Notes: generated by a model from the sequence alone, not told the origin. A stretch of DNA of 64,000 bases from Ignavibacteriota bacterium (GCA_963801355.1 CAWDEM010000008.1:1984001-2048000); one strand, 5' to 3'. Shown: positions 29,096 to 39,743, counted from the first letter of the stretch. Made by a program: numbers and translations.

Positions 29096-29203
29096 TGTAG
29101 GGAATACCGACACACGGTGTAGGCAATTACCACACAATTTGTTGGTTAGTCTTCCATTCCCAGGATACTTAGTCACTCTAAGTCATTGTCGATAAATCAG
29201 ATA
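29096..29203 (+). promoter_or_regulatory. Putative enhancer-binding-protein UAS sites (TGT-N11-ACA)
   Basis: TGTAGGGAATACCGACA 29096 and TGTAGGCAATTACCACA 29118 (22 bp apart); degenerate TGTCGATAAATCAGATA 29187. Confidence 0.6.
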
Positions 29204-29220
29204 TGGCGATATCGCATAGT

Positions 29221-29237
29221 TCGGCACAGGACTTGCA
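29221..29237 (+). promoter_or_regulatory. Sigma54 (-24/-12) promoter
   Basis: tcGGCACaggacTTGCA: GG-N10-GC with consensus flanks, about 55 nt before the first operon ATG. Confidence 0.8.
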
Positions 29238-29291
29238 ATTGTGTCCATTATTGCTTCACCACGAATGTTCAACATAAAACTAGAGGAAACC

Positions 29292-29540
29292 ATGTTCGAT
29301 CTCGACGACCCCCGCTCATGGACCTACTTCACGAACTGGGTTCTGGTTGCCGTGGCATTCGTTGCCGCTCTGTTCATAGGGTACGGTGTGCTTCGCGAGA
29401 AACGCGCCAGGAAGACATCCCCGGCACATGCGACGGGCGACGCCCATACGCTCTTTCTCCCGGACCTCGGGCTTACGATGGCCGACGGCGGCGAGAAAGT
29501 CACAGATGAGAAGTCAAAGAAAACAGCGAAACCGGCCTGA
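29292..29540 (+). CDS. Small single-TM protein with GLTMADGGE motif
   Basis: GAGGA RBS; TM WVLVAVAFVAALFIGYGVL; motif shared with the two GcvH-like proteins. Confidence 0.75.
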   Translation: MFDLDDPRSWTYFTNWVLVAVAFVAALFIGYGVLREKRARKTSPAHATGDAHTLFLPDLGLTMADGGEKVTDEKSKKTAKPA

Positions 29541-29569
29541 CCTCCGGGAGAGACAACGAGGACACAGCA

Positions 29570-30544
29570 ATGCGATGCCCCTTTCTCCGCGAAGCACAGG
29601 TGAAGTCCTGTCGTGGTTCCGCCTTCCGCAAAATGATCGTCTGTGTGCCCGGTCAGGCGGATGCGGACCGCTGTACATCACCCGACTTTGTGAATTGTCC
29701 GGCTGCGCTGCCGCTCACCGATGCACATGCTCACGATTCACACTGTCCGTTCCTCCAGGAATCGCTGGTGCAGTACTGCGCCGCAGCATCCGTCACGAAG
29801 TACATCCCGTACAGCGAGGCGGAGCTCTCGCATTGCGGGACCGATAGTCACAAGTACTGTGAACTCTTTCTCACGCTTGCACACCCCGAGCGCGCAAGTT
29901 TCTCAACAACCGCTTCAGCCGGAACCGGGGCAGATGATTCTTCACCGGACTTCCTTGTGGAAGGCATCCGCGTGCCGGGGTGGCTCGGGTTTTCCCCCAA
30001 CCACATGTGGATCGATATCGACAGTGATGGACTCGTCCATATCGGCATCGACGCCTTTCTTGCTTCGATGCTTGACTCCATAGACCGCATCACCTTTCTG
30101 ACCACCGAAGGCATCCATCGTCCGACCGTGGTGCTGACCATTCACGGCGTCGATCTGCAGATGGTGTTCCCCCATCCGGTGCGCCTGAAGACTCCCAACC
30201 TGTACATCCGCACGCATCCCTTGACATTGTTGTCGGATCCGTATGCACTGGGATGGCTGTTTGAAGGAACTCTCGTCGGTGATGACCCCGCGACGGCTGC
30301 AGAGACGATGAGACGCGAGCTGCTTTCGGGGAGAGCCGCCGCCGGATGGATCGAATCGGAGATTCACCGGGTGTCACATATGGCTCATGCATTGTCTAAC
30401 GCTCCGGACCTCCAGGGAGAAGTTGCTATGGCCGACGGCGGCACCGTGGAACGGGGATTCATTCGACACTTGAACCGTGATGCCATCCTCCGCGTCTTCA
30501 ACGAGTTCTTTTCTCCGTTTGCAGAATGGAGGGATTTAAAGTGA
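29570..30544 (+). CDS. Cys-rich GcvH-like protein lacking the lipoyl lysine
   Basis: Duplicated CPFL.E..V..C N-domain; H-protein fold motifs HMWI..IGIDAF..SDPY..GWL; C-terminal MADGG. Confidence 0.75.
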   Translation: MRCPFLREAQVKSCRGSAFRKMIVCVPGQADADRCTSPDFVNCPAALPLTDAHAHDSHCPFLQESLVQYCAAASVTKYIPYSEAELSHCGTDSHKYCELFLTLAHPERASFSTTASAGTGADDSSPDFLVEGIRVPGWLGFSPNHMWIDIDSDGLVHIGIDAFLASMLDSIDRITFLTTEGIHRPTVVLTIHGVDLQMVFPHPVRLKTPNLYIRTHPLTLLSDPYALGWLFEGTLVGDDPATAAETMRRELLSGRAAAGWIESEIHRVSHMAHALSNAPDLQGEVAMADGGTVERGFIRHLNRDAILRVFNEFFSPFAEWRDLK

Positions 30545-31128
30545 GTGTGAAGGGTCCAATACTATTTTTGTGCGGAATTCTGGCATCCCTTGCCATTGGA
30601 TGGTTCGCGTTCCCCGCTGCCCTCTACCGGACCGAGGCGCAACCAATGCAATTCAACCATGCCATCCACACGGGCGAACAGAACAGCATGACCTGCGACA
30701 TGTGTCATGAGTTCGCAGAGAACGGCAGCTTCAAGGGCATTCCGGTTATCGCAAAGTGCGCTGAATGCCATTCCGCACCCATCGGTTCGACAGAGTCCGA
30801 GAGGATTCTCGTCGAACAGTACGTGACACCCCAGAGGGAAATCCCGTGGAAGGTCTATTCGCGCCAACCGGACAACGCGTATTTTCCGCACACGGTCCAT
30901 GTGAAAAGCGCAGAGATCACCTGCGACGTGTGCCACGGACCGCATGGTTCCAGCTCTTCGCTCCCCGCGTATCAAGTCAACCGTATCAGCGGGTATAGCA
31001 GGGACATCTGGGGAAGGAACATCTCGGGGATTCCCTCCCAGCCCTGGGAAGGCATGAAGATGGACCGGTGCGTGCGGTGTCATGCCGAGCGCCGGAGAGA
31101 CGACAGCTGCATTGATTGTCACAAGTGA
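30541..31128 (+). CDS. Membrane-anchored pentaheme cytochrome c (QrcA/ActA-like)
   Basis: N-terminal TM; QPMQFNH; CDMCH, CAECH, CDVCH, CVRCH, CIDCH. Confidence 0.9.
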   Translation: MSVKGPILFLCGILASLAIGWFAFPAALYRTEAQPMQFNHAIHTGEQNSMTCDMCHEFAENGSFKGIPVIAKCAECHSAPIGSTESERILVEQYVTPQREIPWKVYSRQPDNAYFPHTVHVKSAEITCDVCHGPHGSSSSLPAYQVNRISGYSRDIWGRNISGIPSQPWEGMKMDRCVRCHAERRRDDSCIDCHK

Positions 31129-31130
31129 AC

Positions 31131-32876
31131 ATGAAGAGATCCATGAAGATTACACGAAGAGAATTGCTGACGTTCGCGGGTGGATCGATCCTCGGCGCCC
31201 TGTTCACGCCCATCCCATGGAAGCTCCTGGACGATAGCTCGATTTGGACGCAGAACTGGTCACTGATCCCCGGTCTTCCCCGTGGCCCGGAGACATATAC
31301 CGCAACCCGATGCGCCATCTGTCCGGGGGGCTGCGCCGTCAGGGCCCGACGTATCAATGGGCAGCCCGTCACGCTTGCCGGCGTTCCCGCAGATCCGCTC
31401 AAGAGCGGAGCGCTCTGTCCCATGGGAATTGCCGGACATCATCTGGCATTCCATCCGCTGCGGCTACGTGATGCCTTCGCGTTCACCGGAAAGAGCCCGG
31501 ACGCAACGCTGGTTCCGATCGGCCTCGATGAAGTCGTATCGAAGGTCTCCCGGACCATTCGGGATCTATCGGCGGCGTCGATGCCAGGTGCCATCGCGAT
31601 TCTTGATCAACGGCCTGGAAGGGCGGTCTCCGGGCTCTACCGGGAGTTCATCGGGACGTGCCCGCAGGGAACCTACATCGTGGCCCCGGGATCTGAAGAA
31701 CCCACGCTGGCCGCTCTTCAAAGACTGTGCAATTTCAACGAGGCATTGCCCGGCTATGACCTCGAGAATACTCGGGTCATCCTGAGTTTTGGATCCGACC
31801 TGCTCGACGGGTGGAGCTCTCCGGGCCGCTTGACCGGTCTCATGCAGAACAGAAATCAGAACGGTCTGCAACTCATCCAGGCGGAAGGCGTCAAATCCCG
31901 CACCGCGCACCAGGCAAACACCTGGCTCCCCGTGATCCCGGGTACAGAGGGAACCCTTGCTCTCTCAATCGGCAACGTGCTTATCCGTGACGGTCTGCAT
32001 TCCCGGGACGTCGAGAAGGGGATCACTGATTTCCAGACATACAAGAAGCTTGTTGCCGGATTCCCGCCCGAGGCCGCTGCGGCTGCAACCGGCATCTCCG
32101 CTCAGGCAATCACAGCGACAGCGCACGCGCTCGCTTCCGGTCCATCAGTGGTCATGGCAGGGTGCAATCCTGCGGGCGGTCCGTTCGACCGGGCCACCGA
32201 GGTTGCGATTGCGGGACTCAACATACTCATCGGGAGCGTTGGCCGGAAAGGTGGCATCACTCTTTATGCCCGCACCCCTTCGGCACACGCATCAACCGTG
32301 CCGGCGGTCGCCCTGGCGGATGTCCCGGACCATTCCATCCGGCTGCTCTTGATCGACGGCGCCGAATCGGGAAATGTGTTCCCCGCGTCATTGCTCAAAC
32401 GGAAACTTACATCCGACGGCGGAACAGTAGTGCTCATGTCTCCGTATCTCGCTCCGCGATCAGGCAGTGCCGACTATTTGTTGCCGTCAGCTGCTGCATA
32501 TGAATCGACGGAAGAACTTTCCACCCCAACCGGTGCAACCCGATCTTCCTTTGCTCTCTCCCTCCCGCTGTTCAAGCAGTCCGAGAAGACTGTTGATCCC
32601 GTGGCATTCCTGGCGAAGCTCGCTGAGGCCGCCGGTCTTCCTCTGCCCGGAGCGACATCCTCGGAAGCCTGCCTCAAGCAGCGTGCCCACGATATCTGGG
32701 TTTCCAAACGAGGATCATTGACTACGGCGGCGGATTCTGCAGTGACCCCTGTACAGGGAATGTCGGGAGAAGAAGATTTGTGGAAGGGATTGTCGGAGGG
32801 AGAATGCTGGATTGACAGCGAAGATCAGCACCCGTCAGTCATTCCGAAGTTCGATCCTCGGTTCGATGACGCCTGA
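31131..32876 (+). CDS. Molybdopterin oxidoreductase-like subunit (QrcB/ActB-like), N-terminal part; apparent frameshift near 32850
   Basis: Tat motif ITRRELL; CAICPGGC...LCPMG Fe-S site; WLPVIPGTEG, ADYLLP. Ends before the molybdopterin dinucleotide-binding domain. Confidence 0.8.
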   Translation: MKRSMKITRRELLTFAGGSILGALFTPIPWKLLDDSSIWTQNWSLIPGLPRGPETYTATRCAICPGGCAVRARRINGQPVTLAGVPADPLKSGALCPMGIAGHHLAFHPLRLRDAFAFTGKSPDATLVPIGLDEVVSKVSRTIRDLSAASMPGAIAILDQRPGRAVSGLYREFIGTCPQGTYIVAPGSEEPTLAALQRLCNFNEALPGYDLENTRVILSFGSDLLDGWSSPGRLTGLMQNRNQNGLQLIQAEGVKSRTAHQANTWLPVIPGTEGTLALSIGNVLIRDGLHSRDVEKGITDFQTYKKLVAGFPPEAAAAATGISAQAITATAHALASGPSVVMAGCNPAGGPFDRATEVAIAGLNILIGSVGRKGGITLYARTPSAHASTVPAVALADVPDHSIRLLLIDGAESGNVFPASLLKRKLTSDGGTVVLMSPYLAPRSGSADYLLPSAAAYESTEELSTPTGATRSSFALSLPLFKQSEKTVDPVAFLAKLAEAAGLPLPGATSSEACLKQRAHDIWVSKRGSLTTAADSAVTPVQGMSGEEDLWKGLSEGECWIDSEDQHPSVIPKFDPRFDDA

Positions 32877-33294
32877 GCACTTCCAGGCACCGTCTGCATC
32901 GGTGAAACCGGCCAAGGGCACATTGAAGCTGATGCCTTTTGGCTGGAGGAACGCGACGATGACGGCCTCTGTGGCGCCGGTGCTCAGCAAGATCTTCCAG
33001 GAATCGCATCTCCGGAGTCTTGGCGGAAGAGTACACCTCAACCCCTCGACCATTGCCGCGAACGCGCTTGCGGACGGGGCCCGCGTGAAAATCAGCACAC
33101 AGTCCGGAACCGTGACAGCCGATGTCGTTGCCGATCCGGCGATCATTCCCGGTGTCATCCACGCCATCGTCGGTCCATCTCCCAACAACACCGCGCACAC
33201 GGATCAACCCGAGGCGGAGGGACTGCTCGGTCTGTGCGTTGTGGGTGCGGACGGTTCATGGAGAATCACTGAAGCAACGATTGCGAGAGCGTAA
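32851..33294 (+). pseudogene. C-terminal molybdopterin dinucleotide-binding domain of the QrcB-like subunit, in a shifted frame
   Basis: VHLNP..LADGARVKIST.SG....V..DPAIIPGVI; no convincing RBS; overlaps the upstream ORF end. Confidence 0.6.
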
Positions 33295-33298
33295 GAGA

Positions 33299-34048
33299 AT
33301 GGAACAGAGCGCAGAATCCAAATCCCGGTATGGCATGGTCATCGACCTTGACCGCTGCACAGGGTGCGGCGCGTGCATGGTCGCATGTGCGGTGGAGAAT
33401 AACGTTGCTCCGGCGGAACAGAAGGCGACGGATCGCACGGGCGACACCTGGTTGCGCGTCTACACGGTAACCAATGGCGAAGGATTCCCGTCGCTTGACA
33501 CGGTATTCATCCCGATGGGCTGCCAGCAATGTGATAATCATACACCGTGCGTCTCCGTCTGCCCGCAAAACGCCGTGGAACTGGACCACGCGACGGGCAT
33601 CGTTGCGCAGATCCCCCAGCGGTGTCTTGGATGCCGCTACTGCATGACGGCATGCCCGTACCATGCGCGATATTTCAACTGGTGGGATCCCCGGTGGCCG
33701 GAAGGCACAGAAACACTGCTCAATCCGGACGTTGCACCCCGCATGCGCGGTGTTGTCGAAAAGTGCAATTTTTGCCATGGGCGCCTTCATACGGCAAGGA
33801 CCAAAGCAGCAGCAGAAGGAAAAAAAGGAATCGAACCCGGCGACTACATCCCCGCCTGCGTTGAAAGCTGTCCCTCACAGGCAATCGTGTTCGGGGACCT
33901 TGCGGATGAGTCGAGCCCCGTTGCGCAGCTGAGCCGGAGCAGTGATGCATTTCAATTTCTTCCCAGACTCGGCACCGCGCCGAAGGTGTTCTATCACTCA
34001 GCGAGGGAATGGGTCCGGAACATGGCCGCACGGGTACCGACGGCGTAA
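33299..34048 (+). CDS. 4x[4Fe-4S] electron-transfer subunit (QrcC/NrfC-like)
   Basis: CTGCGACMVAC, CQQC...PCVSVCP, CLGCRYCMTACP, KCNFC...PACVESCP. Confidence 0.93.
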   Translation: MEQSAESKSRYGMVIDLDRCTGCGACMVACAVENNVAPAEQKATDRTGDTWLRVYTVTNGEGFPSLDTVFIPMGCQQCDNHTPCVSVCPQNAVELDHATGIVAQIPQRCLGCRYCMTACPYHARYFNWWDPRWPEGTETLLNPDVAPRMRGVVEKCNFCHGRLHTARTKAAAEGKKGIEPGDYIPACVESCPSQAIVFGDLADESSPVAQLSRSSDAFQFLPRLGTAPKVFYHSAREWVRNMAARVPTA

Positions 34049-34120
34049 ACACTGAACCCCATCCATAAGGATGGGAATGACAACCCCGCCGTTCACGACG
34101 GGATACAGAGGAACAGGATA

Positions 34121-35347
34121 ATGGATCAGCAGTTCATACCCAGAGGATTGCAGCGGACGTCGTTCACACGGTTTCTGACATGGATTCTCCCGTGGATTCT
34201 CCTGCTGGGCATCGGTGTCTACGCAATGTATCTTTGCCTTGCCGACGGCCTGTATCACACCAACATGGATAACAGGTTTGCCTTCGGGCTCTGGATCTAT
34301 CTTGATCTCACCATCATCGCTCTTGGTGCGGGCGCCTTCTTCACCGGTTTTCTCCTGTATATCCTGAGGAGGGACGAGCTCAAGGCAGTCATCAACAGCG
34401 CCGTGGTTCTCGGACTCATCTGCTACAGCGGCGCCGTCCTCGTGTTGATGGTGGATGTCGGACAACCCCTCCGCGCATGGTTCACCTTCTGGCATCCCAA
34501 CACACACTCGATGCTTGCGGAAGTCACGTTCTGCCTCACCTGCTACCTGACGGTCCTCATCATCGAATATCTCCCTGTGGTGTTGAAGAACCGGAAGCTC
34601 AGACAAATCCCGCGGTTCCTCGTGTTCGAGTTCGAACTGCACAAAGTCATGCCGGTCTTTGCGGGTGTCGGGACGTTCCTGTCCTTCTTCCACCAGGGCT
34701 CCCTGGGCGGGCTGTACGGGGTCCTCGTCGGCCGTCCGTTTTCGTTCCGCGAGGTCCTGGGGATATGGCCGTCCACCTTCTACCTCTTCATCATTTCCGC
34801 GGCGGCTGCCGGCCCGAGTTTCGTTCTGGTGACCACGTGGCTTGTACAGAAACTTTCGGGGAAAAAGCTGGTAAAACCCGAAGTCATGAAATTCCTCGGC
34901 AAGGTGTCTGGGTGGATGCTTATCGTCTATGTGCTGCTGAAGGCTATCGACACACTGTATTGGATCAATCATACCGTGCCGGCAGAGGGTGGGCTTGCGT
35001 ACGCGTTCTATACTTCGCAGGGATTCGGCACGTGGATCCTCTTTGCAGAGATCGTTTTTCTGGGTCTCATCCCCGCCCTGTTGTTGCTGAGCAGGCGGAT
35101 GCGGGAAAAGCCTGCCGTGCTGGTGGGCGCGGCGTTTCTTGTCTGCTGTGGTATCGTGATGAACCGTTTCGTGATGACCATCCAGACTCTTGCGCTGCCG
35201 ACATTGCCCTTTGACCTGATGATGTCCTATGTCCCGAGCTGGCAGGAAGTTGCGACATTTCTCGCTGTTGTCGCCTATGGTGTTCTGGTATATTCTCTTT
35301 CGTTTCGGTATACGACTCTCTTTCCTCAGGAAAGAGACATCCGCTAA
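34121..35347 (+). CDS. NrfD/PsrC-family membrane subunit (QrcD-like)
   Basis: About 10 TMs; GLWIYLD, DVGQPLR, HQGSLGG, NRFVM, YVPSWQE. Confidence 0.92.
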   Translation: MDQQFIPRGLQRTSFTRFLTWILPWILLLGIGVYAMYLCLADGLYHTNMDNRFAFGLWIYLDLTIIALGAGAFFTGFLLYILRRDELKAVINSAVVLGLICYSGAVLVLMVDVGQPLRAWFTFWHPNTHSMLAEVTFCLTCYLTVLIIEYLPVVLKNRKLRQIPRFLVFEFELHKVMPVFAGVGTFLSFFHQGSLGGLYGVLVGRPFSFREVLGIWPSTFYLFIISAAAAGPSFVLVTTWLVQKLSGKKLVKPEVMKFLGKVSGWMLIVYVLLKAIDTLYWINHTVPAEGGLAYAFYTSQGFGTWILFAEIVFLGLIPALLLLSRRMREKPAVLVGAAFLVCCGIVMNRFVMTIQTLALPTLPFDLMMSYVPSWQEVATFLAVVAYGVLVYSLSFRYTTLFPQERDIR

Positions 35348-35365
35348 TGACAGTGGAGGTGCATT

Positions 35366-36199
35366 GTGTTCCCGTTCATCTATGAGTTTCAGTGGACCCC
35401 GTACCATATGGTATTTCTGGGCCTTTTCTTTTCCGTGGTGGTTGTGATCCTCTCCGCCGTGTCGCTAGCGGGGCTGCGCGCATACAAAACACTCCAGCGC
35501 CGGCGTCATGAGGCCGTTCAGTGGGAGGCGGAATTCAAAGACCTGCCTGTTGTAGCGCGCACATGCCGGCATCAGATCGCGGGCGAAGTCGAGCACAGGA
35601 CGTGCAATAACGAATTCGATTGCCGTACCTGTGAGGCGCATAAAGCATTTCTGGCCAAACACACACCCGGGCTGGCTCCAGCCGGCACACAGGAGTCTGT
35701 CTTTGGCTTCTCCATGCCCCTTGACCGGTACTACCACCGGGGGCACACGTGGGTGACGTATGATGGCGACGGGATCTATACCATCGGGTTGGACGATTTC
35801 GGCAACCGGATGATTGGTGCTCCGGAGTCCGTTGAACTCCCCGGCGTTGGAACTGCGTTGAGTGCGAACGGCAGCGGATGGCTTATCAAAAAGGGACGCG
35901 CGGCACTTCGCATCCTCTCGCCCATCGACGGCATGGTGGTGGAGACCGGGTCCACAAAGGATGGCTGGTACCTCAAAGTGCGCGGTGGGGAACCTGAAGT
36001 GGAAACCCGTCACCTCCTGCGCGGAGAGGAAATCAAGCCCTGGATCCTGAGGGAGTTGGAGCGGCTGCAGGGTGCCGTTTCACCGGCAGGCGTGGGTATG
36101 ACTCTTGCCGACGGTGGCGAGCTCGTTTCTGATATGTCGAAACACGCCCCGCATGTCGACTGGGACGGTGTCTGGGGAGAGATGTTCCTGCAGGCGTAA
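35366..36199 (+). CDS. Membrane-anchored Cys-motif GcvH-like protein lacking the lipoyl lysine
   Basis: GGAGG RBS with GTG start; TM; CRH..GEV..RTC.NEFDCRTC; YYHRGHTWV..IGLDDF..SPIDG..GWY; TLADGGE. Confidence 0.8.
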   Translation: MFPFIYEFQWTPYHMVFLGLFFSVVVVILSAVSLAGLRAYKTLQRRRHEAVQWEAEFKDLPVVARTCRHQIAGEVEHRTCNNEFDCRTCEAHKAFLAKHTPGLAPAGTQESVFGFSMPLDRYYHRGHTWVTYDGDGIYTIGLDDFGNRMIGAPESVELPGVGTALSANGSGWLIKKGRAALRILSPIDGMVVETGSTKDGWYLKVRGGEPEVETRHLLRGEEIKPWILRELERLQGAVSPAGVGMTLADGGELVSDMSKHAPHVDWDGVWGEMFLQA

Positions 36200-36205
36200 A
36201 GAGGG

Positions 36206-37567
36206 TTATTCCCTCTGCATGTTGTACTTTTTCAACCGGTCATACAGGGTTGAGCGGTCAATGCCAAGAATGGACGCCGCCTCCTTGATGTTCCCGTGCG
36301 TGCGCTCCACCGTGGCGGTGATGATATCACGCTCCGCTTCCTCCAGCGTGATATTCGCCGGCACGTTCCACGCCGCTTTGCCCTGATCCCGCCCCGCAAC
36401 AAGAAACTCCACATCCTCATCGGCAAGCATCGTGGTCTTGCAGGTGACAATCGCCCGCTCAATGGTGTTTTCCAGTTCACGGACGTTGCCCGGCCATTCG
36501 TGATCCATCAGGATGCGTAACGCTCCCTCGGAGATTCCGCTTATGTTCTTCCCGAGTTCGTGTGAGATCCGCTCGACGAAGTTCCGGGCAAGGAGCGGGA
36601 TGTCTTCCCTGCGTTCCCGCAGCGGGGGTATCTGGATGCTGATCACGTTCAACCGATAGAAGAGATCATCGCGGAATTTTCCTTCGCGTACCGCGCGATC
36701 AAGGTCCACGTTTGTCGCGGCAATCACGCGGACATCCACTTCAATCTCTTCAGTCCCGCCGACCCGGTAGAATTTCCGCTCCTGCAATACGCGCAGGAGG
36801 TCCATCTGCAGTTTCGACGAAATGTCACCGATCTCGTCCAGAAAAAGCGTCCCGCCATCCGCCATCTCAAATTTCCCTTTGCGCTGTGAGGCTGCGCCGG
36901 TGAACGAGCCCTTTTCATGGCCGAAGAGTTCGGATTCAAGGAGCGTTTCGGGAAGAGCGGCGCATGAGACGGTGATGAACGGTTTCGCCGCCCGGTCACC
37001 CGAGAAATGGACGGCCCGGGCGATCAACTCCTTGCCCGTGCCGCTCTCCCCCTGGATGAGTACCGTGCTGCGCAATCCGGCGACATCCCTCACCAGATCA
37101 AAAATCTTTCCCATTTTCGGGCTTTTGCTGAGGATGTCATGAAAGCTGTACTGTTTCGTGAGTTTCTTCCGGAGAATGGAATTCTCCCTCTGCAGGTTCT
37201 TGACCCTGATAATCCTGTTGACGAGAAGGGATATTTCCTCGGGGTTGCAGGGTTTGACGATGTATTCCTGTGCCCCTTCCTTCATCGCTGTGATCGCGGT
37301 GTCCACCGTTGCGTAGGCAGTCACAATGATGATGGATGCCTCCGGATGGATCTTCCGGATTTCCATCATTGTCTCGATGCCATCGATGCCACCGGGCATC
37401 TTCAAATCAATGAAATAGATCGCATAGTCGAGGTGCGCGGCTTTGTCGATGGCCTCCCTGCCCGACACTGCGGTATCGACGTTGTAACCGTCTTCCCGGA
37501 GCCATGCCGCAAGCGACTCGCGCATCACTTCTTCGTCGTCCACCACCATGATATGCCAGTGATTCAT
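36206..37567 (-). CDS. Sigma54-dependent response regulator (NtrC/AtoC family)
   Basis: REC domain; GESGTGKE, ESELFGHEKGSFTGA, FLDEIG, FR.DLFYRL, WPGNVREL; Fis-type HTH. Confidence 0.96.
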   Translation of the reverse strand: MNHWHIMVVDDEEVMRESLAAWLREDGYNVDTAVSGREAIDKAAHLDYAIYFIDLKMPGGIDGIETMMEIRKIHPEASIIIVTAYATVDTAITAMKEGAQEYIVKPCNPEEISLLVNRIIRVKNLQRENSILRKKLTKQYSFHDILSKSPKMGKIFDLVRDVAGLRSTVLIQGESGTGKELIARAVHFSGDRAAKPFITVSCAALPETLLESELFGHEKGSFTGAASQRKGKFEMADGGTLFLDEIGDISSKLQMDLLRVLQERKFYRVGGTEEIEVDVRVIAATNVDLDRAVREGKFRDDLFYRLNVISIQIPPLRERREDIPLLARNFVERISHELGKNISGISEGALRILMDHEWPGNVRELENTIERAIVTCKTTMLADEDVEFLVAGRDQGKAAWNVPANITLEEAERDIITATVERTHGNIKEAASILGIDRSTLYDRLKKYNMQRE

Positions 37568-38103
37568 ACAGTCCTCGTCTTTTCCTCAACAAGCGTGATG
37601 CAATTACTGCACAATTCCGTGCCTTTGGCGTCCACCTGTCGGACATTGTTCGAGAGTGACATCGGACAGCCGGTGTCTGCGCAATGTGTCAGGCCGACCG
37701 TATGCCCGACTTCGTGCACTGCCTCCTTCACGGCCCGTGCGGCGGTGAGGGAGGGATTGGGAGGCAGACCATAGAATTCCTGTTGCAGACGAGCCACTGA
37801 GACGACCGCGGCCGGAGCACCCAGTTGGGCTTGCCCGAGCACGAAGCTGAGCATAGGAATGAACAGGTCCCTGCTGGAAATCGCCAGGAGGCTCACCGCG
37901 TCAGGCGGCACACGGGCCACAAGTTGACGCAGGATGTGCGCGGAACTGAACTGTCTGCGCTGCGGGTCAAAGGCGTAGTCAGGTCCCGGCAACGGGGACA
38001 GGCGCTTCACCTCATGACCGTACACGCGCTGGAGTCCATGTTCTATTGCGGTCAGGATGTCTTCCTCAATCCCGCCCAGTGCAACGATATACATCGATTT
38101 CAC
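37564..38103 (-). CDS. Archaemetzincin-family Zn metalloprotease
   Basis: HEVGHTVGLTHC....CPM.....VD.K...LC..C; LSFVLGQA. Confidence 0.9.
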   Translation of the reverse strand: MKSMYIVALGGIEEDILTAIEHGLQRVYGHEVKRLSPLPGPDYAFDPQRRQFSSAHILRQLVARVPPDAVSLLAISSRDLFIPMLSFVLGQAQLGAPAAVVSVARLQQEFYGLPPNPSLTAARAVKEAVHEVGHTVGLTHCADTGCPMSLSNNVRQVDAKGTELCSNCITLVEEKTRTV

Positions 38104-39743
38104 AAGACCCGTTCCGGCGCGAAAGGTACTGCAGCCGGTGCAGCCTGGACGGGTTCGACGGGCAGCGTTACCTTGAACACGGTGCCTTCGCCCACGATGC
38201 TGCGCATCTCGATGTCACCCCCGTGTGCCTGAACAATGCCGTAGACCACAGCAAGCCCGAGCCCCACCCCTTTGCCTTCCCCTTTCGTCGTGAAGAAAGG
38301 AGTGTACAGTTTCGCGATATTCTCCGGGGCAATCCCGTCGCCGGTATCGCTGACCTCGAGGACCAGTGAATTATCGACCGGCTCGTGAGAAGTCCGGACC
38401 GTCACGCGTGCGTCGGCTTTGTTCTGGGTCGCTTCGGCACCGTTCATCACCAGGTTGATCAGCACCTGCTGCATCTGGGAGGCATCACACGTAACGAGCG
38501 GAAGTTGCTCGTCCAGCTGAAGATCCATCGCGACGCCCATCAATTTCAACTTGTGCCCTATCAGATTGACGGTGGTCCGGACGACGGCGTTGAAGTCCGT
38601 ATTCGCACGCTGATGCGGTTTCGATCGCCGGGAAAACGCAAGCAGGTCCTGCACGATCCTGCCTACCCTGCTGGTCTCGTTGACTACCTGCGTCAGGTAC
38701 TTTTTGAACTCCTCGATCCTCTGCGGCGGTATACCATCCTCTTTCACCATGCGCTGCATCAGCATGGAAAGGTTCAGCACCCCCGAGAGCGGGTTGTTGA
38801 TTTCGTGTGCAACACTCGCGGAGAGCTGCCCCAGGGAAGCAAGCCGGTCACTGCGCAACAGCTTCTGATGAGCAACCTTCAGCTCTTCGGTGCGTTGATC
38901 CACTTTCGTTTCGAGTCCCTGGGTAAATTCGTTCAACTTGTTGATCGCCTCGTTCAGTCTCACGCGCATGGTGTCAAAAGTCTGTGCGAGTTCTCCGAGT
39001 TCCTCCGAGGAATCGATATCGACCGGCTTGTCGAGGTTCATCTTGCTTACCGCCCGGATTCCTCCTATGAGCTTCTGAATTGGCGCTGTAACATACCTTC
39101 GTGTAAAGAAGATCGTAAAGACCGATATCAGGAGAACCAGTATGGCGGAAACAATAAGCACCCGGTCCTGGACCGTGCTGATCTCCGCATCGACGGTGCG
39201 AAGGTCAAGGGCGACGTCGACAACACCCAGGACATTCAATGCCGCCGGATGGGCGTGACAGTCTGCATTGCTGCAAGCGGGTTCGTTGTACACCGGGGTC
39301 ACGATCTCGAGGGCGCGCGTGCCGTCCGGGGAACGGAAGACGCGCGTACGCGCGGGCATATCCACCCGCACGAGAGGACTCCCTGATGCGTGGCAAATGG
39401 CGCACGCCTCCGATTGCTTGTCCACTCTGGCGGAATCGCCGGGAGCAGTGGAGAACATCACCCGCCCCTCTTTGTTGAAGATGCGGATGCGGTTGATCCC
39501 CTGCTTGGTGGCGATTGTCTGCATGATATCGTACGCCCGCTCCCGTGTGTCGGCAAGCATGGCGTGCCAGGTCGCACTCACAATGCTGCCCGAAAGCTGG
39601 TCGGCACCTGTGATCATTGCATCCAGAAGTTGACGCTCCTGGGTTTTCATATGGTAAATCCCTGACGCCACGCCGACGAGCATGACAATCACTGTCAGGG
39701 GAATTATGAGCTGTAGAGAGAGCTTCCGCGGATAAAGTTTCAT
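38100..39743 (-). CDS. Sensor histidine kinase with heme-c-type periplasmic domain and HAMP
   Basis: CAICH and CSNADCH between two TMs; HAMP; VAHEINNPL, NLVMNG, PFFTTK, GLGL. Confidence 0.92.
   Translation of the reverse strand: MKLYPRKLSLQLIIPLTVIVMLVGVASGIYHMKTQERQLLDAMITGADQLSGSIVSATWHAMLADTRERAYDIMQTIATKQGINRIRIFNKEGRVMFSTAPGDSARVDKQSEACAICHASGSPLVRVDMPARTRVFRSPDGTRALEIVTPVYNEPACSNADCHAHPAALNVLGVVDVALDLRTVDAEISTVQDRVLIVSAILVLLISVFTIFFTRRYVTAPIQKLIGGIRAVSKMNLDKPVDIDSSEELGELAQTFDTMRVRLNEAINKLNEFTQGLETKVDQRTEELKVAHQKLLRSDRLASLGQLSASVAHEINNPLSGVLNLSMLMQRMVKEDGIPPQRIEEFKKYLTQVVNETSRVGRIVQDLLAFSRRSKPHQRANTDFNAVVRTTVNLIGHKLKLMGVAMDLQLDEQLPLVTCDASQMQQVLINLVMNGAEATQNKADARVTVRTSHEPVDNSLVLEVSDTGDGIAPENIAKLYTPFFTTKGEGKGVGLGLAVVYGIVQAHGGDIEMRSIVGEGTVFKVTLPVEPVQAAPAAVPFAPERVL

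Follow-up and report, generated by a model that had tools for sequence, protein, structure and literature searches.

The question raised by this locus is why three proteins encoded in one row of genes carry the same short peptide, (M/L)ADGG. The locus lies in 64,000 nucleotides (nt) of an Ignavibacteriota bacterium (GCA_963801355.1 CAWDEM010000008.1:1984001-2048000). This whole stretch is called the window here, and positions are counted from its first letter. On the + strand, a tight row of genes (29292-36199) encodes a micro-protein, the GcvH-like protein G324, the QrcA-, QrcB-, QrcC-, and QrcD-like proteins, and a second GcvH-like protein, G277. The three sites named in the original prediction translate as written there: GLTMADGGE (29469-29495) in the micro-protein, EVAMADGGT (30419-30445) in G324, and GMTLADGGE (36095-36121) in G277. 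The DNA identity claimed for the first two copies is also found. They have the 15-mer ATGGCCGACGGCGGC in common, and the corresponding sequence in G277 is CTTGCCGACGGTGGC. Our answer, held with a probability of about one half, is that (M/L)ADGG could be the core of a cytoplasmic docking motif by which the micro-protein, G324, and G277 engage one common partner. For the micro-protein and G277, the motif would be written LG-x-T-[ML]-A-D-G-G-E; the form in G324 would be hydrophobic-x-D-G-G.

The co-occurrence of the three copies is not explained by chance. Among six-frame open reading frames of at least 50 amino acids (aa), [ML]ADGG is seen 23 times in the 4.8-Mb genome. From this whole-genome count, about 0.03 occurrences are expected per 6.65 kb against three observed (Poisson P about 5e-6), and the conservation in relatives described below makes the rejection of a chance origin conclusive. 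Five of the 23 genomic occurrences belong to an ordinary stretch of sigma-54 activators, E[LM]ADGG[TS]xFLD, and the regulator encoded next to the gene row (36206-37567) is among them. Its MADGGT was considered as a mimic of the motif and set aside, as a generic AAA+ stretch found in five sigma-54 activators of the genome.

The peptide is conserved in all three proteins. LPxLGxTMADGG is kept in 29 of 29 database homologues of the micro-protein. Locus counts here and below rest on the best 80 loci of 399 genomes with G277 relatives, obtained by a scan of one genome per species. Among the 80 species loci, the micro-protein has MADGG in 59 of 61 cases and MTDGG in two. In an alignment of 60 sequences, mostly 27-38% identical to the window protein, the invariant residues are N15, L18, G60, T62, M63, D65, G66, and G67. 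The micro-protein thus diverges down to about 30% identity, yet the motif and a few residues of the helix are invariant. The original prediction was to be given up if homologues of the micro-protein lacked the motif; they keep it. In G324, [MLI]ADGG is present at the same place in 102 of 120 sequences among the matches listed. The other 18 have [ML]-x-DGG (x is T, N, S, P, or M) or, once, V-M-DGG, and among 63 sequences no variation is seen at D289, G290, and G291. In G277, [LM]ADGG is seen in 78 of 80 sequences and DGG in all 80. Selection on the DNA instead of the protein was also considered. The identical 15-mer is best attributed to codon preference, not to DNA-level selection, because the codons of the motif vary freely at synonymous positions across 59 homologues of the micro-protein, and the DNA-level explanation is rejected on this ground.

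The peptide is not restricted to one type of protein. Comparison of the micro-protein profile with longer proteins revealed six proteins of the major facilitator superfamily (MFS; P0319-P0324) in which F[QH]P[GN]LGLTMADGGEK and a brief charged stretch form the C-terminus. A scan of two of them (P0321 and P0322) gave about 401 bits for NF049980, the L-lactate MFS transporter family (cut-off 320). The named members of the clusters with this tail are Desulfuromonadales. L218 is also listed among the homologues of MFS L-lactate transporters with the tail LGLTMADGGEK. In metagenomes, at least 120 stretches match a degenerate DNA pattern for LGxTMADGGE. Among the matches listed, about 106 carriers, counted from the printed frames, are of the type of the window's micro-protein, with a WLxxTN helix. 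A scripted sort of the same carriers gave 97 of this type and 15 "other/too short", and the rest were reassigned by reading the frames. The remaining carriers have a PWxxIPAIA helix (four) or a third helix, MPLFWI (three), or are other small membrane proteins (two), an MFS tail (one), or a GcvH-like protein (one); three are cut by contig ends. A G324 gene adjoins in 67 of the 80 listed stretches that have flanks. In the 120 carriers listed, the residues after GGE are few (median 13), variable, and charged.

The peptide is therefore found on at least three other unrelated membrane anchors besides the WLxxTN type, in addition to the C-termini of MFS proteins. Because it is invariant while the anchor is swapped, it behaves like a portable short linear docking motif, as far as sequence comparison can tell. 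The original prediction had suggested a docking or modification tag. The docking half agrees well with a conserved, flexible, and probably cytoplasm-facing peptide on unrelated anchors and on a transporter tail. The exposure of a Gly-Gly terminus is not supported, for the reasons given below. Within the limited collection of literature searched, the strings TMADGG, MADGGE, and LADGGE were not found in a relevant context.

The micro-protein (82 aa, 29292-29540, + strand) consists of an acidic N-terminus, one membrane helix, a basic stretch, and a predicted cytoplasmic tail, DxHT...LPDLGLTMADGGEKV. No Pfam or NCBIfam family matched it. The original description of it as a membrane helix with little more than the motif is accurate, since it has a single helix and a tail that ends in LGxTMADGGE. 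Its profile matches that of G277 at the motif only (20 columns, 69% probability, E 4.4e-5). Lysine and arginine residues average 0.20 per sequence before the helix and 4.47 after it in 60 micro-proteins, and 0.36 before the helix and 4.19 after it in 42 G277 sequences. Because of the positive-inside rule, we infer that the N-termini of both proteins are outside and their C-termini inside, so that all three motifs would face the cytoplasm. The term "membrane-tethered recruiter or decoy", used in the original prediction, is a fair description of a protein with the motif on a flexible, probably cytoplasm-facing tail that recurs on unrelated anchors.

The possibility that the micro-protein is simply the missing membrane anchor of G324 is weakened by two loci (L086 and L101), which keep the micro-protein with its motif and have no full-length G324 anywhere in the genome. 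In two sequences from short contigs (P0317 and P0021), the micro-protein is read through into the N-terminus of G324; these could be natural fusions or sequencing errors. The C-terminus of the Ignavibacteria-type micro-protein often contains a second conserved element, NI[QI]RSEN (L048-L054, L057, L058, L060, L064, L066, L067, L076, L100, and L107). The window copy does not have it.

G324 (324 aa, 29570-30544, + strand) contains two four-cysteine repeats (CPFL-x6-C...), a GcvH-like domain, a long helix, the VAMADGGT loop (30419-30445), and a C-terminal FNEFFSP helix. It has no hydrophobic 19-mer, and all eight cysteines of the repeats are invariant. G277 (277 aa, 35366-36199, + strand) has additions at its N-terminus, a membrane helix and a four-cysteine knuckle, followed by the GcvH-like domain, a helix, the loop VGMTLADGGELVSD (36095-36121), and C-terminal helices. 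G277 matches PF01597 at 44.5 bits. Its TIGR00527 score of 43.1 bits is below the equivalog cut-off of 115.85. The AlphaFold2 model of G277 averages a pLDDT (predicted local distance difference test) of 91.9, and the top 20 Foldseek matches of this model are all solved H proteins (E 1e-8 to 3e-6). The G324 profile matches H proteins at E 1e-9 in a PDB profile search. Nothing beyond "GcvH-like" was obtained for either protein from the ESM Atlas, the PDB profile search, or cluster names.

Based on profile-profile comparison (hhalign), G324 and G277 are homologous with a probability of 98.3% (E 1.2e-14, 185 columns). The match covers the GcvH-like domain, the next helix, the motif, and the C-terminal helix, and LADGG of G277 is aligned to MADGG of G324. 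By this evidence the two are paralogues, and the motif loop was inherited with the common C-terminal extension. The motif was originally said to be shared by three different proteins, which does not hold for this pair. When both were aligned to the canonical GcvH of the same genome (EAVKAVSD), lysine was present at the lipoyl column in one of 12 G277 sequences and none of 12 G324 sequences; the residue in G324 is glycine or aspartate in 12 of 12. Because the lysine is missing in nearly all aligned sequences, G277 and G324 are predicted to be incapable of lipoylation.

In both AlphaFold2 models, the motif is the least confident part of the C-terminal half. The pLDDT block means are 63 for residues 241-250 of G277 and 58 for residues 281-290 of G324, against 86-96 for adjacent blocks. 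The motif is thus modelled as a flexible loop. The 25-35 aa after the motif are conserved and confidently modelled (DWxxVxxExFL, pLDDT 86-94, in G277; LxxFNEFFSP, 75-88, in G324).

Several other arrangements of GcvH-like genes were observed. Three loci of Ignavibacteriales (L068, L069, and L081) have two tandem G277-like genes 3' of qrcD. Outside the window, the same genome contains a second locus (contig C4:1615378-1624230) with two fusions of receiver and GcvH-like domains, 387 aa and 269 aa long. The 387-aa fusion has a membrane helix and the tail ...PIGGEV...GEFF. The companions at this locus are a kinase with haem motifs, a multihaem cytochrome, NrfD- and NrfC-like genes, and a sigma-54 regulator. 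The GcvH-like domains at this locus look like signalling output domains.

Taken together, it can be proposed that three accessory proteins of a Qrc-like module, itself under probable sigma-54 control, present the motif on flexible segments. The micro-protein would serve as little more than an anchor keeping the peptide on the cytoplasmic side of the membrane. G277 would be membrane-anchored and G324 soluble with its eight cysteines, and both would show the motif in a loop of the C-terminal extension. Docking to a common partner would assemble or regulate this accessory layer on the NrfD-type subunit. The partner could be the archaemetzincin encoded nearby; alternatives are the GcvH-like domains as such or the side of QrcD that faces the cytoplasm.

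The module to which these proteins belong is conserved. The QrcA-like multihaem cytochrome c (30526-31128, + strand; NF041781, 208.9 bits, cut-off 180) and the QrcD-like membrane subunit of the NrfD family (34121-35347, + strand; NF041784, 580.7 bits, cut-off 570) pass the NCBIfam equivalog cut-offs. The QrcB-like subunit of the molybdopterin family (31116-33294, + strand; NF041783, 255 bits, cut-off 440), which is split by a frameshift, and the QrcC-like 4Fe-4S subunit (33302-34048, + strand; NF041782, 350.2 bits, cut-off 400) remain below theirs, though these are the best-matching families. The core is called here a Qrc-like menaquinone-reductase module. QrcC also matches Fer4 families, and its start codon is not settled, with the frame open from 33122. 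The qrcB-like gene is broken into frames of 586 aa (31116-32876) and 160 aa (32812-33294), each matching NF041783 below cut-off, by one extra base near 32843-32846, within the overlap 32812-32876. In the two loci used for the alignment, L046, where the neighbouring genes are about 90% identical, and L040, it is in one frame. The split reflects an error of assembly or else a genuine frameshift.

In 401 genomes of the phylum, the micro-protein profile matches 16 genomes at E < 1e-8, and full-length G324 is found in 14, all of which also have a match to the micro-protein. According to record titles, the best 80 loci belong to Bacteroidota/Ignavibacteria, Acidobacteriota (Bryobacterales, Terriglobia, Thermoanaerobaculia, and one Sulfopaludibacter genome), Kryptoniota, and KSB1. 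The order micro-protein, G324, QrcA, QrcB, QrcC, QrcD, G277 is kept throughout the loci (tblastn). Where at least 1.5 kb is available upstream of qrcA, the micro-protein gene is present in 60 of 60 loci (in L085 it was seen by eye), and G324 is also present in 58. Over 73 loci, QrcD identity ranges from 62-96%. The trio with its loops also recurs beside another NrfD-type complex, because in L147 a different NrfC/NrfD pair is followed by a type-2 micro-protein (LGLTMADGGE) and two GcvH-like proteins, the first cysteine-rich (ITLNDGGE) and the second membrane-anchored (KTLADGG). Two metagenome loci have shorter rows. In L171, a short G277-like gene comes immediately after the micro-protein gene, with regulator, archaemetzincin, and kinase next in the row, and in L179 the micro-protein, G324, and a regulator follow one another with no qrc genes between.

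Transcript counts for a relative of this module are found in a published supplement. In the L106 genome, consecutive genes 42-54 are the kinase, archaemetzincin, regulator, the G277 homologue, qrcDCBA, the G324 homologue, and an 87-aa "hypothetical protein" that ends in ...LGLTMADGGEKLDKEEER (PMC10564751). For this homologue of the micro-protein, the supplement gives transcripts per million of 0, 0, 0, and 0 in the first four columns and 0, 2.96, 1.61, and 2.07 in the last four, which shows low-level transcription, not translation. For the G324 homologue, it gives a log2 fold change of -4.7 with p of 0.003.

The first of the possible explanations other than docking on one separate partner places the binding site on the complex itself. 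The loops may bind QrcD where it faces the cytoplasm, which would make the three proteins additional subunits capping or gating the side of proton uptake. Proton uptake by Qrc is described as occurring from the cytoplasm (PMC13059093). Because the other subunits have signal sequences, QrcA-C are probably exported, and QrcD would be the sole subunit of Qrc to expose parts to the cytoplasm. A GcvH-like pair with the loop adjoins an NrfD-family gene in three types of clusters (the Qrc type, L147, and L240), and qrcD and the G277 gene, 18 nt apart in the window, are adjacent in 80 of 80 loci. The same tail is, however, present on homologues of MFS lactate transporters, where an NrfD protein is not expected; the surroundings of these transporters are not seen. 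We consider docking on QrcD doubtful.

If the docking motif has a single partner for all three proteins, the first choice is the archaemetzincin, acting either as a protease of high specificity or, without cleavage, as an adaptor, although this choice is tentative. Its gene (37564-38103, - strand) is located in a row convergent to the module, between a sigma-54-dependent response regulator and a sensor kinase. It overlaps its neighbour by 4 nt at each end. The protein contains HEVGHTVGLTH and four cysteines and reaches 154.6 bits for NF033823 (cut-off 145), and HExxHxxGxxH and the four cysteines are invariant in 36 sequences. Among the loci where both orthologues are visible, the archaemetzincin is between kinase and regulator in 43 of 48, and in four of the five exceptional loci it is elsewhere in the genome. 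Of the 50 best Peptidase_M54 matches in the 401 genomes, 39 are within 3.5-10 kb of a GcvH-like gene on the same contig. These include a second type of locus without qrc genes. In L189, one strand carries the archaemetzincin gene directly upstream of a third type of micro-protein and a G324-like gene. L240, which is of the type without qrc genes, has in sequence a membrane-anchored GcvH-like protein (FMQDGG), NrfC, NrfD, a cysteine-rich GcvH-like protein (TMLDGG), kinase, regulator, and archaemetzincin.

The original prediction had linked the archaemetzincin to the motif. Gene neighbourhood favors the link itself, and the cleavage proposed with it, exposing a Gly-Gly terminus, finds no such backing. 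A complex prediction of G324, the archaemetzincin, and the micro-protein, with the last as the partner, scored 0.00 against a mark of 0.32; this score stands without folded controls, and the result weighs neither way. For an archaeal archaemetzincin, it is reported that no endopeptidase substrate was found and that a very stringent specificity is possible (PMC3427221). The same source describes CarG of Myxococcus xanthus, an inactive relative of archaemetzincins that acts in transcription control. It can be speculated that hydrophobic-x-DGG is the physiological site, missing so far, that prokaryotic archaemetzincins recognize or cut. The enzyme would then process or capture the micro-protein and the two GcvH-like proteins, switching quinone modules of the NrfD type on or off post-translationally, and the tag would put further membrane proteins, e.g., lactate transporters, under the same control. 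This extended version is rather unlikely. Within the limited collection searched, no literature linking archaemetzincins to sigma-54 was found.

Several observations weigh against a shared docking motif or against the archaemetzincin as its partner. In G324 only DGG is invariant, and the three loops may have different reading sites. It is equally conceivable that the invariant loop has a function within its own protein, e.g., in binding a ligand. Five Bryobacteraceae-type loci have no adjacent archaemetzincin gene; four of them keep the motif (L078, L082, L084, and L092) and the fifth, L091, is cut upstream. One of these five genomes has no archaemetzincin match at all, its completeness not being given. 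The second locus of the window's own genome, with GcvH-like receiver-domain fusions and NrfCD (C4:1615378-1622579), has no adjoining archaemetzincin gene either. The neighbourhood counts are drawn from related genomes and are not independent events. The MFS proteins with the tail are known without their gene surroundings, so a candidate partner beside them is not visible. Finally, the G277 homologue of L106 has zero reads in all eight columns (PMC10564751).

The loop as an internal element can be formulated as an explanation of its own. The motif would close over a metal, a cluster, or a small ligand together with the cysteine-rich region of a GcvH-like protein, and the micro-protein would be a remnant or a mimic that supplies the loop in trans. 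Such a role fits the inheritance of the loop with the whole extension in G277 and G324 and the invariant cysteine sets of both proteins; the low pLDDT is also expected, as AlphaFold2 cannot place cofactors. It does not fit the presence of the peptide without the domain in micro-proteins and MFS tails, on at least five kinds of anchors, or its stricter conservation on these domain-less carriers than in G324. We regard this explanation as improbable.

The next explanation concerns the regulatory genes. A sigma-54-type -24/-12 element, CGGCACAGGACTTGCA, was found by pattern match at 29222-29237 (+ strand), about 55 nt 5' of the start codon of the micro-protein, and AGAGGAAACC is directly 5' of its ATG. 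In related loci, a similar element is present 20-130 nt upstream of the micro-protein gene in 51 of 58 cases, compared with 5.7% of random 110-nt windows. Because this element precedes the micro-protein gene in the window and in these 51 loci, the gene is probably the head of a sigma-54 operon whose promoter would be used from this site. Public sequencing runs that match 29150-31150 include no RNA run among those listed. The adjacent sigma-54-dependent response regulator (36206-37567, - strand) has REC, AAA+, and HTH domains and matches PF00158 at 239 bits, and its own FEMADGGTLFLDEIG is the ordinary AAA+ stretch mentioned above. The sensor histidine kinase (38100-39743, - strand) has an N-terminal outer domain with CAICH and CSNADCH, followed by HAMP, HisKA, and HATPase domains (Pfam). 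Its outer domain is probably a redox sensor with c-type haem bound by the two cysteine motifs. The pair CAICH and CSNADCH recurs in the kinases of the C4 locus and L240.

The three proteins might be feedback regulators of this two-component system, their loops binding the cytoplasmic part of the kinase or the sigma-54 activator. The operon is 3' of the -24/-12 element and beside its likely activator, GcvH-like domains are fused to receiver domains in the second locus of the genome, and CarG, resembling an archaemetzincin, acts in transcription control (PMC3427221); other sigma-54 activators are likewise controlled by membrane proteins. MADGG in the regulator, as a generic AAA+ stretch, says nothing on binding. 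The probability of feedback control is considered low.

The weakest alternative, that the archaemetzincin cuts after DGG and the exposed Gly-Gly C-terminus acts as a ubiquitin-like or sulfur-carrier tag, has in its favor the co-inherited intact metzincin active site, the invariant Gly-Gly, and the short variable charged stretch after the motif in the micro-protein, but it is very improbable: the folds are GcvH-like hybrid barrels and not beta-grasp, the motif in G277 and G324 is followed by conserved residues that are modelled with confidence, and no ThiF/MoeB-like activating enzyme is encoded among the ten conserved cluster genes, no genome-wide search for one having been made. Metzincins usually cut before a hydrophobic residue, and a cut at G|[LIV]TM would fit better than one at GG|E.

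A docking motif shared by the three proteins thus remains our reading of the peptide. If it is right, the locus represents a Qrc-like module with a previously undescribed accessory layer, apparently facing the cytoplasm, whose members share one portable peptide and are tied by gene neighbourhood to an orphan protease family. The Qrc-like core is now seen across at least four phyla, always with three extra genes for putatively cytoplasm-facing proteins and nearly always with an archaemetzincin gene in the regulatory operon next to it. Bacterial archaemetzincins, whose targets are given as unknown in PMC3427221, thereby gain a candidate substrate or partner. A role is also suggested for GcvH-like domains incapable of lipoylation. 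The peptide itself would exemplify a tail tag that is portable among membrane micro-proteins and transporters of bacteria.

Two general concepts come close, namely short linear docking motifs in membrane-protein tails and the small subunits, each a single helix, of respiratory complexes. The system described here resembles them in its short invariant peptide, disordered tail, interchangeable anchors, and coding together with a membrane complex. It differs from known docking motifs in that, to our knowledge, no reader domain is known for the LGxTMADGGE peptide. Compared with ubiquitin-like and sulfur-carrier proteins (ThiS and MoaD), there is no beta-grasp fold here; the motif is internal in G277 and G324, and the micro-protein is a helix with a tail. 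The H protein of glycine cleavage has the same fold as G277 and G324 (Foldseek, PF01597), but here the lipoyl lysine is missing, and the proteins are enlarged by a membrane helix or cysteine-rich repeats and, at the C-terminus, by the extension in which the DGG loop lies. The lipoate-binding GcvH-like proteins of sulfur oxidisers are a further counterpart of this kind. The archaemetzincin is similar to the archaeal AmzA and to CarG, since its score exceeds the cut-off of the family model and the extended zinc motif is present along with four cysteines. Unlike CarG, it keeps the catalytic glutamate, and its gene is inside a two-component operon beside proteins with one invariant peptide.

The closest counterpart of the core is QrcABCD of the sulfate reducers of Desulfobacterota, which has the same four core genes in the same order. 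As described, QrcABCD has four subunits, none of them on the cytoplasmic side (PMC8076601, PMC13059093), and in the survey of NrfD-like subunits QrcD is given for Deltaproteobacteria only (PMC8076601). An acidobacterial genome with assigned qrcABCD, for which transcription under anoxic conditions is stated, is also on record (PMC10564751). In the limited collection searched, no literature linking Qrc or NrfD to GcvH-like proteins and nothing related on Qrc in Ignavibacteria was found. In contrast to QrcABCD, the modules of Bacteroidota, Acidobacteriota, Kryptoniota, and KSB1 always contain three extra genes, together with a unit of kinase, archaemetzincin, and regulator.

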